Source: Minisyncoccia bacterium (GTDB lineage Bacteria; Patescibacteriota; Minisyncoccia; Phycocordibacterales; Phycocordibacteraceae). Taken from it: a stretch of 64,000 nt of DNA. A program made the translations under genes and the position numbers. Below are positions 3,011 through 64,000 of the stretch, piece by piece; position 1 is the stretch's first letter; the number at the start of each line of letters is the position of its first letter. The stretch spans positions 442 through 64,441 of the forward strand of contig JBBRPE010000003.1 of NCBI GenBank assembly GCA_038228545.1, in the 5' to 3' direction. Below the pieces are notes generated by a model. That model was given only the letters and a program-made list of their open reading frames with translations. It had not been told where the DNA came from and made no database searches.

Positions 3011-4108
3011 TTAAGAGTGTAGAAAGACCATCACGTCACCATCTTTGGTTTCGTAGGTTTTGCCTTCCGTGCGTATATCGCCCTTATCACGTGCAGCGCT
3101 CCACGAACCGTCTGCTATAAGCGTGTCCCACTGAACGACTTCTGCGCGTATAAATTTATCTTTGAAATCCTCGTGGATTGCAGCGCCCGCTTCAGGCGCA
3201 CTTGCGCCTTTTTTCACTGTCCATGCGCGTGTTTCTTTCGGACCAGTAGTGAAGTACGTAATAAGGCCGAGTGTTTCGTAAGCTCCACGTATCAAGTCCT
3301 TGATGCCATCATCTTGCACGCCGAGTTCCGAGCGGAACATAATTTTGTCCTCGTCTGAAACGTCGTTCAGCTCGTGTTCCGTTCGAGCGTCTACCATGAC
3401 GTAACTTCCACCGAGTGATTTCACATATTCGTACGCTTTCTCTGCTCGTCCGTCATTCATTTCGCCGAGATTATGCCCGCCTGCCTTGCCGTTAAAAGCG
3501 TAGAGGATTGGTTTCAAAGTAAGGAGATTGAGTGACTTGATAAGCTTTGCTTCTTCCGGCGTGAGGTCTGCCGTTAGCGCGAGCTTTCCATTCTCTAACT
3601 GACCTTCAACCTTTACGAGGACTGCATCTTCTTCTATCGCCTCTTTCTTATTCATCTTTACGTCCTTGCCGACTTTCTCACGACGATTTTTTACGGATGC
3701 CTGGTCTGCAAGCATAAGTTCAAGATTAATAACCTCAATATCCTCAACGGGATTCACTTCCCCATGTACATGCGTAATGTCTGGATCATCGAAGAAACGC
3801 ACCATTTGCAAAATTGCATCCGTCTCGCGGATATGAGTAAGGAACTGATTGCCCAGTCCTTCACCTTCTGAAGCACCCTTGACCAGTCCTGCAATATCCA
3901 CAAACTCTACAGCCGCAGGAATAGTTTTTTCAGAACCTGAAAGTGTGGTGAGTGCCTGTAGGCGTTCGTCCGGTACGCCAACGACACCCACGGATGGGTC
4001 TATCGTACAGAACGGATAATTCTCCGCTGGCACCGAAGCCTTTGTGAGCGCATTAAAGAGAGTGGACTTCCCGACATTCGGGAGCCCGACGATTCCTATC
4101 TGAAGCAT
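3011..4108 (-). CDS. ychF: Ribosome-binding ATPase YchF (Obg-family GTPase)
   Basis: [22 protein letters not shown] (G1/Walker A), FCTIDP, and a C-terminal TGS-like region ...GDVMVFLHS. 365 aa is typical for YchF. Confidence 0.95.
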
Positions 4109-4131
4109 TGTTCTACCTTACGGTTTGCGGG

Positions 4132-4163
4132 AGAAAAAAGAAAGACCGCCACGGATGGCGGTC
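4132..4163 (-). terminator. Rho-independent terminator (minus strand)
   Basis: Perfect 8-bp hairpin gaccgcca/tggcggtc (4144-4163). On the minus strand it is followed by UUUCUUUUUU (complement of the 4134-4143 A-run). It sits 24 nt upstream of the ychF start. Confidence 0.6.
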
Positions 4164-4290
4164 GGCGCTAGAACGAGAACGCTACGCGGTTCGTTAGGCC
4201 TACGTGTCTGAGGGACATCCAGAAATCTGGTGTCCTACCCGGGGGGAGAAGGCGACACGTGTCCTCGTCCTAGCACTGGCACTGTGCCAT
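4164..4290 (-). ncRNA. Candidate structured small RNA of unknown class (extended hairpin with large asymmetric bulges, 6S-like architecture)
   Basis: On the minus strand a 14-bp closing helix (GCUAGGACGAGGAC / GUUCUCGUUCUAGC, 2 GU pairs) encloses a nested 7-bp helix (ACGUGUC/GACACGU) and an apical hairpin (GGACAUCCAGA-AAU-UCUGGUGUCC). It is followed directly by the intrinsic terminator at 4132-4163. It lies in the 200-nt gap between the flavodoxin-like gene and ychF. Confidence 0.35.
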
Positions 4291-4309
4291 TCAATACTTC
4301 TTTTTGCAA

Positions 4310-4891
4310 TTACACTCCACGTCGAGCAAGTGCGGCAATTTTCTTGAGATACCGCGTATGACGAGTAGGAGTGCAGTTCTCGGAATTTCCGAATTGCGTC
4401 ATGGACACCTTGTAGCCCGACATACCGAGGAGGGCGTAGGAAATTTCGTTGGTGAAGTCACCGAAAACCAGCCGGATAAAAAATGGAGGCATCTTTGAAA
4501 GTGTAATAACGCGTGCAGTTTTGCCATTCAGCATGCGGTCCCAACCCATACCGCTTTTCCAAAAGTGGAAGGCGAAGCCGGGAAGCCACATACGGTCGAA
4601 CATACCCTTAAGGAGCGCGGGCATCGCCGACCACCACACCGGATACACGAGCACAAAGTGGTCAGCCCACTTCATATCTTCCTGGACCTTCTTCAAATCC
4701 GGTTCAAGTTCCTGAATGACCTTATAACCCTTGTGGAGAATAGGGTCGAAGGACAGGTCGCTTATGTTGGTACGACGCACGTAGTGCCCAGCTGCTGCGG
4801 CATCCTTTGCATACGCATCCGCCACATCATTCGAGAGCGTTTCCTCTGAGTCAGGGTTACCCATCAGTATAAAAATGTTCTTTTGCTTCAT
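4310..4891 (-). CDS. Flavodoxin-like fold NAD(P)H:quinone oxidoreductase (MdaB/YwrO-like)
   Basis: MKQKNIFILMGNPDSEETLS...HFVLVYPVWWSAMPALLKGMFDR, an FMN-dependent NAD(P)H dehydrogenase (Flavodoxin_2) signature. Confidence 0.8.
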   Translation of the reverse strand: MKQKNIFILMGNPDSEETLSNDVADAYAKDAAAAGHYVRRTNISDLSFDPILHKGYKVIQELEPDLKKVQEDMKWADHFVLVYPVWWSAMPALLKGMFDRMWLPGFAFHFWKSGMGWDRMLNGKTARVITLSKMPPFFIRLVFGDFTNEISYALLGMSGYKVSMTQFGNSENCTPTRHTRYLKKIAALARRGV

Positions 4892-5027
4892 ATCACGAAT
4901 TATGTCACGCGTTCAAAAGGATTCCTATGCAAGGCGTGGGTAAGTTATTGAATGAAGCGTACTCATAGTACGGAGAATGAAATGACTGGGACCCGCAACG
5001 CAGCAGAGGTATGCCTTTTGTCGCTCA

Positions 5028-13239: not shown

Positions 13240-13281
13240 ACTATCATCATCTTGTGACGACCGTCACAAGATGATGATAGT
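13240..13281. repeat. Near-perfect 20-bp inverted repeat (stem-loop)
   Basis: actatcatcatcttgtgacg AC cgtcacaagatgatgatagt, a 20-bp perfect stem with a minimal loop. Intergenic, between the two minus-strand genes 13357.. and ..13134. Confidence 0.75.
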
Positions 13282-13356: not shown

Positions 13357-13929
13357 CTAGTTGCCCTTCTTGAGAGCCTCGAGGTCACTAAGAAGTTTCT
13401 GGACATCGTTCGATAGCTGCTCGAGCAGTTCTTTTTCGTCACGCACTTTCTTTTCCGTACGATCCTTACGTTCTTTGCGTTCCTTCTTTTCCGTTACTTC
13501 TTTTTCTTTGACCTCCTGGGCCTCTTCCTTTTCTTCATCAGACATCTCTTCGACGTCTTCCTGAATTTCATCGATGTCCTCAGAGATTTCCTCGATGTCT
13601 TCCTGAATGTCTTCGACGTCTTCGCCAAGTTCCTCTACGTCTTCCTGAATTTCCTCGATATCTTCCTCGACTTCACGAAGCTGAGCGGTGTTGCGATTCA
13701 CTGTAATTTGAATGAAAAGCGCGAGATAAATAGCCTCAAGCGAGACTATCGTCGTAAGCACCAAGAGCATGTTCTGCCACTCTACGAGCCCAAATGCGGA
13801 CAAGGCGAACGACACGATAAAAAGTATCGTATGCACGAAGAGCGACGTAACGGAGCCAATGGCTTCAATCGCCCGCTCAATGATGGACTTGTTGAGTGGG
13901 GCTTTCATTAGTCGCACCCTAGCCCGCAA
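13357..13929 (-). CDS. DUF1003-like membrane protein with acidic tandem-repeat coiled-coil tail
   Basis: N-terminal 2-TM region (ILFIVSFALSAFGLVEW...LFIQITVNRN) typical of DUF1003. The C-terminus contains about seven 7-aa repeats, EDIEEIQ / EDVEELG. The underlying ~21-nt DNA repeats are visible at 13560-13690. Confidence 0.7.
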   Translation of the reverse strand: MRARVRLMKAPLNKSIIERAIEAIGSVTSLFVHTILFIVSFALSAFGLVEWQNMLLVLTTIVSLEAIYLALFIQITVNRNTAQLREVEEDIEEIQEDVEELGEDVEDIQEDIEEISEDIDEIQEDVEEMSDEEKEEAQEVKEKEVTEKKERKERKDRTEKKVRDEKELLEQLSNDVQKLLSDLEALKKGN

Positions 13930-17865: not shown

Positions 17866-17960
17866 ATCCTTCGAATCCTGTACGGTACGCACAAAATATA
17901 AGAAAACCCTGCTCACGCAGGGATTTCGTTATTTTGTGGACCGTACAAGATTCTCGACTT
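17866..17960. repeat. Palindromic tRNA-Ala-derived unit A: inverted degenerate copies of the tRNA-Ala 3' half flanking a GC hairpin
   Basis: The plus-sense fragment cttcgaatcctgtacggtacgcac (17868-17891) matches the tRNA-Ala T-arm and acceptor 3' strand. The central hairpin is ccctgc-tcac-gcaggg with A/T runs. The minus-sense fragment tggaccgtacaagattc (17937-17953) matches the same tRNA segment. Confidence 0.7.
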
Positions 17961-18008: not shown

Positions 18009-18088
18009 TCAACGAGTTTCTTCGAATCCTGACGCAAGCTCCGCTTGCTTACGGTCCACGACAAAAGCCCCTTGCGGGGCTTTATGTG
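18009..18088. repeat. Palindromic tRNA-Ala-derived unit B (second tandem copy, fused to the functional tRNA-Ala gene)
   Basis: The plus-sense fragment ttcgaatcctg[acgcaagctccgcttgct]tacggtccacg carries an inserted 6-bp hairpin. It is followed by the gcccc-ttgc-ggggc hairpin and then the genuine tRNA-Ala 3' end in the opposite orientation. Same architecture as unit A. Confidence 0.7.
18061..18082 (-). terminator. Rho-independent terminator of tRNA-Ala
   Basis: On the minus strand: GCCCC-GCAA-GGGGC UUUUGU, directly 3' of the tRNA. Confidence 0.7.
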
Positions 18089-18161
18089 TGGACCGTACAG
18101 GATTCGAACCTGCGACATCTTCATTGCAAATGAAGCGCTCTACCAACTGAGCTAACGGCCC
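18089..18161 (-). tRNA. tRNA-Ala (anticodon UGC)
   Basis: Minus-strand sequence GGGCCGUUAGCUCAGUUGGUAGAGCGCUUCAUUUGCAAUGAAGAUGUCGCAGGUUCGAAUCCUGUACGGUCCA. Full cloverleaf, G3:U70 identity pair, A73, T-loop UUCGAAU. CCA is not encoded. Confidence 0.93.
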
Positions 18162-18956: not shown

Positions 18957-19958
18957 TTAGATACTGACACGGTCAAGCGACAGCTCAACCAGATGTGAAA
19001 GGAAATCTGGGAACTTTACGCCGACCGCCGCGAGCGACTTCGGCAGAAGCGATTCACTTGTCATGCCCGGAAGCGTATTAGTCTCGAGGAAATAGATACC
19101 CTTCGGCGAAACGATGAAGTCGCTACGTGAATAGTGACGAAGTCCGAGTACTTGATGCATAAGCTTTGCTTGTCGCATCAGTTCGTCATTCACTACTTTA
19201 CTAAAGCGTCCGGGGACAATTTCCTGTGTACTTCCGTCATACTTCACTGCCCTGTCGAAAAATGAAGCGTGCGGTGGCGGAATGATTTCTATCGGTGGAA
19301 GCATGTAGATATCCTCACCTCGCATACGCTCCACTACACCCGCAGTAGCTTCTGTGCCCCGTATTACTTCTTCGATGAGTACACCGCCATACTGCATGAG
19401 ATTCTCAATCGCTTGATACACAGGCGCGTAACCACCGACTATGGATATACCGACAGAGGAGCCCAGTGCTACTGGCTTTACGATAACGGGCTGATGAAAA
19501 TTTCGAGTGATATGCGCGGCGGCGGCTTCTATATCCGCGCCTTCGTCTACGAAATAGTATTTCGGCGTGAGTAGACCCGCTTCCATCGCCTTTTCCTTCG
19601 TAAGCACCTTATGCATTGCTACTGCCGACGCAAATGAGTCAGAGCCCGTGTAGGGCACGCCATATCGCTCTAAAAGCTTCTGTACGCCGCCGTCTTCTCC
19701 GTATTCACCATGGAGACCGATAATGACTGAATCGAGCGATGGGAGCACGCGTTCAGGGGAGGTGGGGACACCTCGTTCGTGCCACGTTCCCTGCTTATCT
19801 ATGTACAAATCGCGTGCGGTGTACCGGTCTTCGGGCAAGTGCGAAAGTATTGAATGACCAGTCTTAAGCGAGACATCATGTTCGCTTGAAGGACCACCCC
19901 GTAACACTCCGACAACTGTGCCTCTCATGTGCTGAATTATACCAGCATGAAGCGGCAA
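18957..19958 (-). CDS. ddl: D-alanine--D-alanine ligase
   Basis: VLRGGPSSEHDVSL...IIGLHGEYGEDGGVQKLLE...VKPV.LGSSVGISIV...FLETNTLPGMT, the ATP-grasp Ddl signatures. Confidence 0.93.
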   Translation of the reverse strand: MPLHAGIIQHMRGTVVGVLRGGPSSEHDVSLKTGHSILSHLPEDRYTARDLYIDKQGTWHERGVPTSPERVLPSLDSVIIGLHGEYGEDGGVQKLLERYGVPYTGSDSFASAVAMHKVLTKEKAMEAGLLTPKYYFVDEGADIEAAAAHITRNFHQPVIVKPVALGSSVGISIVGGYAPVYQAIENLMQYGGVLIEEVIRGTEATAGVVERMRGEDIYMLPPIEIIPPPHASFFDRAVKYDGSTQEIVPGRFSKVVNDELMRQAKLMHQVLGLRHYSRSDFIVSPKGIYFLETNTLPGMTSESLLPKSLAAVGVKFPDFLSHLVELSLDRVSI

Positions 19959-25828: not shown

Positions 25829-25854
25829 AGTGTCATTTTAGCACCCGCAGGGGA

Positions 25855-51375: not shown

Positions 51376-51430
51376 TTGAGAGACTAGGGATCGAACCTAT
51401 ATTCACGGCTTCAAAGACCGCTGTCCTACT
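51376..51430 (-). pseudogene. 5'-truncated duplicate of tRNA-Gln (D-arm to 3' end, no acceptor 5' strand)
   Basis: Minus strand GUAGGACAGCGGUCUUUGAAGCCGUGAAUAUAGGUUCGAUCCCUAGUCUCUCAA is ~90% identical to positions 18-73 of the intact tRNA-Gln. The upstream sequence cannot pair with the 3' strand, so it is not a functional tRNA. Confidence 0.65.
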
Positions 51431-51470
51431 GGCAAGCGACTGAGCGAAGAATGGAATCTGTTCTGTTCAG

Positions 51471-51543
51471 TGCTGGGAGACTAGGGATCGAACCTAGATT
51501 CACGGCTTCAAAGGCCGCTGTCCTACCATTAGACGATCTCCCA
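51471..51543 (-). tRNA. tRNA-Gln (anticodon UUG)
   Basis: Minus strand UGGGAGAUCGUCUAAUGGUAGGACAGCGGCCUUUGAAGCCGUGAAUCUAGGUUCGAUCCCUAGUCUCCCAG(CA). Full cloverleaf with the U1:A72 and G73 Gln identity elements and anticodon loop CUUUGAA. Confidence 0.9.
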
Positions 51544-51675
51544 GCACTGGACGGAACAGGAACGGATTGCATTCTTCCGAGGGAGCGCTGCCAGCAAGCT
51601 CTGCTTACCACTCGCCGATCTCCCAATTTGTGAACCGCACGTTCTCACTTTGCCCGAAGTGGCTCTCCTCGGCAA

Positions 51676-52614: not shown

Positions 52615-53678
52615 TAACGTGGAGCGAGCAATTCGATAACGGCCAGTTCCAGTGCGAGCGCGGGAACGGGAGAAAAAAGCATCCGTCCAGCGGCCTCGAG
52701 GAATGTTCTGAGTGTCTCGTGTGAGATTTTTGATTCACTATCTAGAGCCAATACCTCAAACTCTGCGTATTCGTCGGTTCCCAGTTCCAACGCAATTTCC
52801 TTACGAAGTTCAGGCGCGTAGCGAATAAGAAGAATGGTGCGAAGCGCCTCAAGCACGAGCGTCAGATACAACTGCATGTCTACATCCTCGCCCGCAGTCT
52901 TCCTAAGTGCAGACAGAGCATTCTCGACATTCCCTGCGGCCAGAGCCTTCGTAAGAGCGAGTACGAGTGCGCGCTTTGGAGCACCAGTTGCCACTTCTGC
53001 TTCTGCAAGCGATATCTTTGAATCACTCGATACGGAAAACACTTTCTCGAGTATGGAAAGCGCGTCACGATAGGAACCTTCCGCAAGCAATGCCACCAGT
53101 TCTGCTGCAGCCGGCTCAAGCGTGTACTTCTCTTTCTTCGCTATCTCCGCTATAAGCGTTGCAAGTCCTGCACGTGTCGGTTTCTTAAATTCAAACACCT
53201 GGGTGCGCGAACGAACAGTGTCGGGCACTTTTTCGAGCTCGGTCGTTGCAAGTATAAAAAGCGCATGCGCCGGTGGCTCTTCGAGAGTTTTCAGAAACGC
53301 ATTCCACGCGCCTTTCGAGAGCATGTGTGCCTCGTCGAGAATGTACACCTTGTACTTCGATTCGAACGGAAGTGTGTAGACGTTCTCGGTAAGAGAACGG
53401 ATATTATCGACGCCGGTATTGGAGGCGGCATCAATCTCATAGAGGTCCTTGTCGCTAGTGCCGAGTTCGTGAGCAAAGATACGTGCAACGGACGTCTTCC
53501 CAAGACCACGCGAGCCGGCAAACAGATACGCATGTCCTACCTTGTCTGATTTAATCTGTTCACTAAGTGGTCCAGTGACTTGCTGCTGACCCGCCACTTC
53601 GCTGAATTTCGAAGGACGATAGGTACGGTATAACGACTGGTGTGCCATGGGGCGATTATACCAGTCCACGAGCTTCAT
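52614..53678 (-). CDS. dnaX: DNA polymerase III gamma/tau subunit (short form)
   Basis: YRPSKFSEVAGQQ..., Walker A GSRGLGKTS, Walker B ILDEAHMLS, SRTQ sensor, 354 aa. Confidence 0.75.
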   Translation of the reverse strand: MKLVDWYNRPMAHQSLYRTYRPSKFSEVAGQQQVTGPLSEQIKSDKVGHAYLFAGSRGLGKTSVARIFAHELGTSDKDLYEIDAASNTGVDNIRSLTENVYTLPFESKYKVYILDEAHMLSKGAWNAFLKTLEEPPAHALFILATTELEKVPDTVRSRTQVFEFKKPTRAGLATLIAEIAKKEKYTLEPAAAELVALLAEGSYRDALSILEKVFSVSSDSKISLAEAEVATGAPKRALVLALTKALAAGNVENALSALRKTAGEDVDMQLYLTLVLEALRTILLIRYAPELRKEIALELGTDEYAEFEVLALDSESKISHETLRTFLEAAGRMLFSPVPALALELAVIELLAPR

Positions 53679-63694: not shown

Positions 63695-63775
63695 TTGCCG
63701 GGGTGGTGGAATGGTATACACGGTGGATTCAAAACCCGCTGCCGCAAGGCTTGAGAGTTCGAGTCTCTCCCCCGG
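63695..63775 (+). tRNA. tRNA-Leu (anticodon CAA), class II with long variable arm
   Basis: GCCGGGGUGGUGGAAUGGUAUACACGGUGGAUUCAAAACCCGCUGCCGCAAGGCUUGAGAGUUCGAGUCUCUCCCCGGCA. Perfect 7-bp acceptor, A73, anticodon loop UUCAAAA, variable stem-loop GCC-GCAA-GGC, T-arm GAGAG/UUCGAGU/CUCUC. CCA is not encoded. Confidence 0.88.
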
Positions 63776-63796
63776 CACAGATTTAAGCGAAGCTAA

Positions 63797-63952
63797 AAGC
63801 TGGGCCGGGGAGTACCTGGCCTTCGCCAGGTACGTGAGAGACTCGAAAGCCGGAGCGATGTTCGGCGAGCACGCCGAACCGCGAGGCGGGACTGCGACCT
63901 AGGCGAGTGACGACGAGCCTAGAGTTGTAGTCGAGAATGTACTCATGTTCTC
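63797..63952 (+). ncRNA. Candidate structured RNA of unknown class with tRNA/tmRNA-like end pairing (5'-GGGGAG…CUCCCCCACCA-3')
   Basis: Three internal hairpins (GUACCUGGC-CUUC-GCCAGGUAC, GUUCGGCG-AGCA-CGCCGAAC, CUAGGC-N12-GCCUAG) enclosed by GGGGAG/CUCCCC pairing, then ACCA. It directly follows tRNA-Leu and is followed by an intrinsic terminator. Confidence 0.3.
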
Positions 63953-63963
63953 TCCCCCACCAC

Positions 63964-63990
63964 AAATTGAAAAGCCCTGGCGGTTTCCCG
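63964..63990 (+). terminator. Rho-independent terminator
   Basis: gccctggcgg-tttc-ccgccagggc (10-bp stem) followed by TTT at the window edge. Confidence 0.7.
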
Positions 63991-64000
63991 CCAGGGCTTT

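Follow-up and report, generated by a model that had tools for sequence, protein, structure and literature searches.

A candidate small RNA gene with a promoter-like box and an intrinsic terminator directly upstream of ychF in a Parcubacteria-type genome

Bacterial small RNAs (sRNAs) such as DapZ and MicL are embedded at the 3' end of protein-coding genes and are transcribed from promoters of their own that lie within the upstream coding region or at its end. The Firmicutes have regulatory sRNAs with C-rich loops, RsaE/RoxS and the UCCC-motif Rsa RNAs, the usual targets of which are Shine-Dalgarno sites. 6S RNA needs both strands of its bubble and a length of ~180 nt. Riboswitch and attenuator leaders consist of a structured domain followed by a terminator, just upstream of the gene.

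The element described here was found on the minus strand of a 64-kb stretch of DNA (the window; all coordinates without a locus name refer to it), and related loci are numbered with the prefix L. Like DapZ and MicL, the candidate sRNA would be short, structured, confined to one lineage and dispensable, it would use the intrinsic terminator of the mRNA, and its putative promoter elements extend over the stop codon or final codons of the gene upstream (in L081, L082, L085, L176, L177 and L001). It differs from them in that no conserved seed or target was found, and in that the unit stays with ychF, not with the upstream gene, where synteny breaks (L084 and L172); we know of no Hfq-type context for the phylum Patescibacteria. 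With RsaE/RoxS and the Rsa RNAs it shares a length of ~100-150 nt, a 3' terminator and unpaired C-rich, CUCC-like loop motifs able to pair with G-rich sites. However, there is no sequence or Rfam relationship, the C-run varies in length and position, and Shine-Dalgarno sites are rare in this genome, with no target found. The long hairpin, the large internal loop and a structure that is conserved more than the sequence recall 6S RNA (RF00013 and related models), but the element is only about half as long, its loop is one-sided and its apical stem very short, it fails the covariance models and it is not universal amongst close relatives. The layout is that of a riboswitch or attenuator leader, yet there is neither a conserved core nor an antiterminator, and the downstream ychF has a putative promoter of its own at leaderless spacing.

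A stable terminated hairpin in the spacer before ychF

The element lies in a 201-nt spacer (4309-4109, minus strand) between a Flavodoxin_2/FMN_red gene and ychF, both on the minus strand. These flanking genes agree with the original prediction, which was made by a model from the letters and open reading frames. The genes and the parts of the recomputed fold are as follows.

4310-4891, minus strand: flavodoxin-like gene (Flavodoxin_2/FMN_red), stop codon at 4312-4310
4261-4274, minus strand: 5' arm of the closing stem P1, GCUAGGACGAGGAC (minimum free energy fold; pair probability 0.998; covaries in orthologues)
4254-4260, minus strand: 5' arm of P2, ACGUGUC (fold)
4236-4253, minus strand: C-rich 5' side of the internal loop, 18 nt, GCCUUCUCCCCCCGGGUA (fold)
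4213-4235, minus strand: apical hairpin P3, GGACACCAG-AUUU-CUGGAUGUCC, 9 bp with one bulged A
4209-4212, minus strand: 3' side of the internal loop, 4 nt (fold)
4202-4208, minus strand: 3' arm of P2, GACACGU, forming a 7-bp helix with 4260-4254 (fold)
4181-4201, minus strand: one-sided 3' bulge, 21 nt, AGGCCUAACGAACCGCGUAGC (fold)
4167-4180, minus strand: 3' arm of P1, GUUCUCGUUCUAGC (fold and pair probability)
4144-4163, minus strand: intrinsic terminator hairpin, GACCGCCA/UGGCGGUC with loop UCCG (terminator scan; mean pair probability 0.96)
4134-4143, minus strand: terminator U-tract, UUUCUUUUUU (terminator scan; T columns invariant in an 8-locus alignment)
3011-4108, minus strand: YchF gene, ATG at 4108

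The long hairpin occupies 4274-4165 and is followed by the terminator and U-tract at 4163-4134, so that the extended hairpin plus terminator of the original prediction was recovered in place and on the minus strand. The 14-bp closing stem (4274-4261 paired with 4180-4167; 16 bp with an outer G-C and a U.G pair), the 21-nt bulge and the 7-bp P2 helix were as predicted. The internal loop and the apical hairpin are also there, but at other sizes: 18/4 nt in place of 13/3, depending on how a CCC/GGG mini-helix is counted, and 9 bp with one bulged A in place of 10 bp. P2 is specific to the window and has no counterpart in the orthologues. The 21-nt bulge contains GAAC, which together with a following GUUC resembles the GAAC-loop-GUUC mini-hairpin that precedes the terminator in L081 and L084. 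The terminator scan confirmed the predicted perfect 8-bp hairpin and U-tract; six of the pairs are G-C, the loop has four bases and TTTCTTTTTT follows, as is characteristic of Rho-independent termination. The bases just 3' of the closing helix are ACC(C) in about seven of the ten loci (equivalents of window 4164-4166 were compared in L081, L082, L084, L085, L001, L173 and L177), and GCC in the window.

The stability of the spacer exceeds chance. The sense strand folds with -80.1 kcal/mol (z = -5.66) and none of 200 dinucleotide shuffles was as stable, compared with z = -1.66 for the opposite strand; for the window hairpin alone the values are z = -4.4 (sense) and -1.8 (antisense). Amongst the hairpins of nine loci, the sense z lies between -4.2 and -5.5 in eight, is more negative than the antisense z in all nine, and is accompanied by a lower sense fold energy in seven. 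A strand-symmetric walk along the helices counted 40 G.U against 14 A.C oppositions. These data favour the minus strand. When the whole window was scanned crudely, with normalisation for composition, the region came only ~24th (z = -3.4), and the top regions adjoin tRNA genes. A general feature of terminators was rejected as an explanation: only 4163-4134 has so stable an upstream 130 nt, the other nine of the ten terminator-like sites in the window being without a comparably stable upstream hairpin.

Known RNA classes were considered and set aside. Rfam 15 at the gathering threshold gave only three tRNAs in the whole window and none at the spacer; cmscan of 3950-4450 at E <= 10 returned only a chance lncRNA match, and no family matched any of 12 related loci at E <= 1. 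The original prediction had listed 6S, SRP, tmRNA, RNaseP and riboswitches as classes to check by cmscan, and none matched the region or the 12 relatives. It had also reported the absence of the SRP domain-IV motif, which we can confirm: there is no GGAA/AGCA motif, the apical loop is AUUU, and with no Rfam SRP match either, SRP (4.5S) RNA was rejected. The suggested resemblance to 6S RNA was not supported. There is no Rfam 6S match at E <= 10, the hairpins of the family are 66-112 nt long, and the loop is mostly one-sided; an apical stem of 6-10 bp and a 3' bubble strand of 0-4 nt in the orthologues are too short for a 6S-type open-promoter mimic. What stands of the original prediction is a structured RNA element with an intrinsic terminator; its comparison with 6S RNA and its alternative of a ychF leader are not supported, and neither is an SRP RNA. 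A literature search on 6S RNA, sRNAs or leaderless genes in Patescibacteria or Parcubacteria found nothing relevant.

Antisense to the hairpin is a 47-aa GTG-initiated ORF (4204-4347, plus strand) that holds the hydrophobic stretch VLVLALALCHSILLFAITL and is probably spurious. No small ORF on either strand is conserved between the window element and the nine other loci that carry one; a type I toxin-antitoxin locus was rejected, the hydrophobic ORF having no counterpart in those nine loci.

Other stretches of the window are structured or repetitive. Downstream of tRNA-Ala (18088-18161, minus strand) there are copies of its 3' half as direct and inverted repeats (17873-17953 and 18050-18097), which surround a terminator (17907-17922), are amongst the most structured regions of the window, and look like the scars of an integration site. 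tRNA-Gln (51472-51543, minus strand) has a 53-nt, 94% identical partial duplicate 97 nt away and is flanked by a 23-nt inverted repeat (91% complementary). On the plus strand, downstream of tRNA-Leu (63697-63778), a very stable stretch of ~200 nt (63780-64000) ends in CUCUCCCCCACCA and a strong terminator and reaches the window edge; ARAGORN found no tmRNA at 63780-64000, and Rfam gave only an FsrA-like, sub-threshold match at 63933-64000 (28 bits, the gathering score being 80). The window also has a perfect palindrome of 20 nt (spacer 2 nt) and a 21-nt unit repeated five times in tandem, for which the 44-nt reference copies overlap at 21-nt spacing.

51377-51429, 51458-51480 and 51537-51559: tRNA-Gln duplicate and inverted repeats
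13240-13281 and 13547-13674: palindrome and tandem repeat regions

Recurrence and covariation in related loci

The closest homologues of the window YchF are 77-87% identical and come from metagenome bins of Patescibacteria, Parcubacteria or Paceibacterota. YchF scans of genome and metagenome contig collections mostly returned relatives of <=77% identity, too distant to carry the element, and L001 was the only useful locus from the contig collections. Including the window, ten Patescibacteria loci have an equivalent unit at the same position and in the same order: promoter-like box, hairpin, terminator, ychF. In the nine other carriers (L081, L082, L084, L085, L001, L172, L173, L176 and L177) the long hairpin and terminator are directly upstream of ychF, and an intrinsic terminator is present in all ten loci. 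The element appears to be specific to one Parcubacteria/Paceibacteria-like subclade. The element is missing in three close relatives (L167, L175 and L168), in which ychF follows the flavodoxin-like gene after 14-21 nt, and more distant Patescibacteria have nothing like it. Searches by pattern, by repeat and by blastn/nhmmer (the last against 80 loci) found no other copy of the spacer in the window or in 860 kb of related loci.

The element is patchily distributed on a rough YchF tree: L081, which carries it, is sister to L175, which does not, and L001, another carrier, falls with L002 and L003, which lack it. Between L081 and L175 there is a clean indel of ~157 nt that comprises the -10 box, hairpin, terminator and spacer together; its edges lie outside the inverted repeat, and there are neither terminal repeats nor a target duplication. 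No flavodoxin-like gene precedes the unit in L084 and L172, where it comes after another terminator or a divergent gene, with a consensus-like promoter of its own. In L175 (1330-1371) and L167 (1460-1503), a TTGCxx box at the end of the flavodoxin-like gene is exactly 17 nt from GAAGGT before the ychF ATG, so that a deletion, or the ancestral state, would leave a complete promoter-like arrangement. Further units built in the same way (promoter, hairpin from +1, terminator), or additional hairpins in tandem, occur in some related loci. The same CGCCCCCCCGA run occurs in L172 (992-1099) and in L084, and in L082 a TTGACA-16-TACTAT promoter is followed by a further segment of ~350 nt.

L172, 992-1099 and 293-410: extra units or hairpins
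L084, 253-455: the same
L082, 2630-2990: the same
L001, 2292-2357: the same

The closing helix is kept paired by compensatory changes, the check that the original prediction had proposed for homologous regions. Across the P1 helices 135 of 136 positions are paired, with 5' arms that are only 36% identical. In a sequence-only MAFFT alignment of L173, L176 and L177 (A4), pairing holds in 33 of 33 cells of the 12 closing pairs, compared with 31-53% in slid controls, and six of the 12 pairs are changed on both sides. In a second alignment that includes the window and was fitted to the covariance model (A7), 98% of cells are paired and 10 of 11 pairs have double changes. The first covariance model was built from L173, L176 and L177 with only the closing helix annotated. 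Its best new match was window 4274-4135 (18.3 bits, E = 0.04 in 286 kb), followed by L081 and then by a second copy in L172, and a second-round model added L082 at exactly its element. The terminator helix was left out of the covariance models because its copies are out of register. A global MAFFT/RNAalifold analysis of seven elements recovered only the closing helix of L173, L176 and L177, the interiors not being alignable; the covariation evidence is for the closing helix only, in 3-6 sequences, with an interior that is remodelled between loci.

Amongst the orthologues no hairpin nucleotide is invariant in the 8-locus alignment (A1), where the only invariant columns are the Ts of the U-tract and A2 and T6 of the ychF -10 box. 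Some interior features recur. Runs of at least four C are found at the internal-loop equivalent in 7/10 loci; a C-run followed by GGGUA is common to the window, L082, L084 and L001; UCCCUCAG, at the 3' edge of P3 in the window, is common to L081; and a further interior fragment that loci have in common is GUG(G)CUAG. The unpaired bases of the ten elements include 186 C and 43 G. The G.U pairs, the near absence of mismatches and the compensatory changes argue for selection acting on an RNA.

Promoter-like boxes of the element and of ychF

Nineteen leaderless genes of the window were used to train a -10 matrix for scoring candidate promoter boxes; by this matrix TGGCACAGT is the sole 9-mer above 2 bits in the upstream spacer.

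4304-4309, minus strand: possible -35 hexamer TTGCAA (weak), read from the sequence, 17 nt upstream of CACAGT
4281-4289, minus strand: extended -10 box TGGCACAGT, 5.6 bits (p = 0.010 relative to random positions), located 6 nt upstream of the 14-bp stem
4274, minus strand: predicted transcription start (G) from the -10 spacing; the covariance-model match also begins here
4115-4120, minus strand: putative ychF -10 hexamer TAAGGT, adjacent to the sRNA and outside it, 6 nt before the ATG at 4108

The putative promoter of the window element is weak, with the hexamer CACAGT and no good -35. The position of the box is shared: a -10 site with p <= 0.04 lies 5-8 nt before the first stem base in 8/10 loci (the window and seven others; combined Fisher p ~1e-7), and by this spacing transcription is predicted to start with the first base of the closing helix. 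TTGCAx boxes at 16-17 nt spacing are also seen in L081, L082, L001, L173, L176 and L177, and in several of these loci are part of the last stretch of the flavodoxin-like CDS. In front of the L084 copy, which comes after another terminator and not after a gene, is TTGACA-16-TAGATT. A promoter belonging to the candidate sRNA is thus predicted at the 5' end of the RNA; its transcription and start site we infer from these signals.

The second box would belong to ychF. In other loci it reads TACGTT, TACAGT, TAAGCT or TACACT, variants that keep TAnnnT at 6-7 nt from the ATG and destroy the match to a Shine-Dalgarno sequence, which fits the -10 box of a leaderless gene and does not fit a ribosome-binding site. 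Its distance from the U-tract is 13-14 nt and constant in most loci. Since a TAnnnT box of its own sits 6 nt before the ATG, the ychF mRNA is probably leaderless. The same layout is frequent elsewhere: by a strict rule, TAnnnT precedes the start codon by 5-7 nt in ~18 of 66 crudely called ORFs of the window, in many cases within TGnTAnnnT (e.g. TGGTATAAT). Shine-Dalgarno-like motifs are rare, so leaderless transcription seems to be common in this genome. This suggests that leaderless mRNAs are widespread in a genome of Parcubacteria type. YchF has been reported to modulate the translation of leaderless mRNAs in Escherichia coli (PMC8138138), which we mention as context for the adjacency of the candidate sRNA and ychF and not as evidence of a functional link.

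19929-19943, 25829-25844, 53649-53663 and 4892-4906: examples of extended -10 boxes

What the element may be

Our preferred reading, to which we give a probability of about one half, is that the element is an independent sRNA gene of ~140 nt with its own promoter and terminator, previously unclassified, fast-evolving, specific to one clade and dispensable. RNA polymerase would start at ~4274 from the extended -10 promoter, and the first transcribed bases would form the 5' arm of a closing helix of 14-16 bp, which would enclose a C-rich, G-poor single-stranded loop and the apical hairpin. A constitutive terminator at 4163-4134 would then stop transcription to give the ~140-nt RNA, and would also shield the next promoter, i.e. 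the -10 box 13 nt downstream that would serve a leaderless ychF mRNA. The sRNA would most likely act in trans, its ends protected by the 5'-terminal helix and the terminator hairpin, and the exposed, CUCC-like loop could contact a G-rich partner, either RNA or protein. That the C-rich loop is the active part is a guess. The 5' region of ychF did not stand out as a target, since unconstrained duplex energies were no better than for other parts of the gene or for shuffled controls; and against 55 start regions of the window the loop reached -16.5 kcal/mol at best, weaker than typical minima of shuffled seeds.

A serious rival is that the element is no more than the 3' UTR of the flavodoxin-like gene. 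It would then terminate that mRNA, guard it against 3' exonucleases and insulate ychF, and there would be no independent functional RNA. There is no terminator between the stop codon at 4312-4310 and the hairpin, so that flavodoxin-like transcripts must cross the hairpin to reach the same terminator. The window's own promoter signal is weak, the U-tract supplies the unit's only invariant features, and three close relatives dispense with the element altogether. A plain 3' UTR, however, needs no -10 box 5-8 nt before the stem, as is seen in 8/10 loci, nor does it account for the units in L084 and L172 that have a consensus-like promoter and no flavodoxin-like gene upstream. So stable an upstream hairpin is, moreover, found at only one of the window's ten terminator-like sites. 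On balance we regard the 3' UTR explanation as doubtful.

A selfish or neutral hairpin insertion, for instance a miniature inverted-repeat element or a duplication arising from local template switching, without function at the RNA level, would explain the patchy presence on the YchF tree (with L175 lacking what its sister L081 has), the clean ~157-nt indel between those two loci, and the extra tandem units or hairpins in L172, L084, L082 and L001. Yet the element is single-copy in the 64-kb window and has no sequence-similar copy in the 860 kb of related loci, the edges of the indel lie outside the inverted repeat and bear no terminal repeats or target duplication, and the helices are kept paired by G.U pairs and compensatory changes with almost no mismatches. 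We consider such an insertion improbable.

The original prediction had also offered a cis-acting leader or attenuator for ychF, in which a signal, sensed by a riboswitch or through a controlling protein, decides whether the terminator is passed. The unit is always directly upstream of ychF with a promoter-like box before it, and the AAGG within TAAGGT, 7 nt from the ATG, could pass for a Shine-Dalgarno-like motif. However, the terminator helix has a mean pair probability of 0.95-1.0 in 9/10 loci, together with the closing stem and with no alternative pairing, which leaves no antiterminator and makes the leader reading unlikely. The hairpin has no conserved core nucleotides or invariant base and no match to an Rfam riboswitch or leader, ychF has a putative -10 box of its own whose TAnnnT variants keep the leaderless spacing seen in ~18/66 ORFs, and L167, L168 and L175 do without the element. 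A ychF leader is thus very improbable, and least probable of all is a miniature 6S-like RNA, i.e. an open-promoter mimic that binds the holoenzyme and is adapted to extended -10 promoters, for although the shape (closing stem, large loop, apical stem), the retention of structure over sequence as in 6S, and the lack of any 6S gene found in the window would suit it, there is no Rfam 6S match (E <= 10 in the region; E <= 1 in 12 loci), the loop is one-sided in most orthologues (3' strand 0-4 nt) with an apical stem of 6-10 bp in hairpins of 66-112 nt, and close relatives lack the element.

If the element is an sRNA gene, as we prefer, it could represent a new family of structured, regulatory RNAs of ultra-small Parcubacteria, one that tunes expression where leaderless mRNAs dominate, either through its transcription or through its loop. 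The marks of this family could be the closing helix at +1, the anti-Shine-Dalgarno-like C-rich loop and the terminator fused to a leaderless ychF promoter; this broader proposal is speculative and, as it stands, unlikely. The result itself is modest: an unannotated, dispensable sRNA candidate that is neither a housekeeping RNA nor a riboswitch. The noncoding RNAs of Patescibacteria are almost unstudied, and the genomes are tiny with few regulators; an sRNA confined to one clade, with clear promoter and terminator signals and with covariation in a helix, would offer a concrete candidate to look for in metatranscriptomes. The extended -10 box that many genes of this genome, ychF amongst them, have 6-7 nt before the ATG affects the calling of gene starts and the reading of 'intergenic' signals, and may matter more widely.
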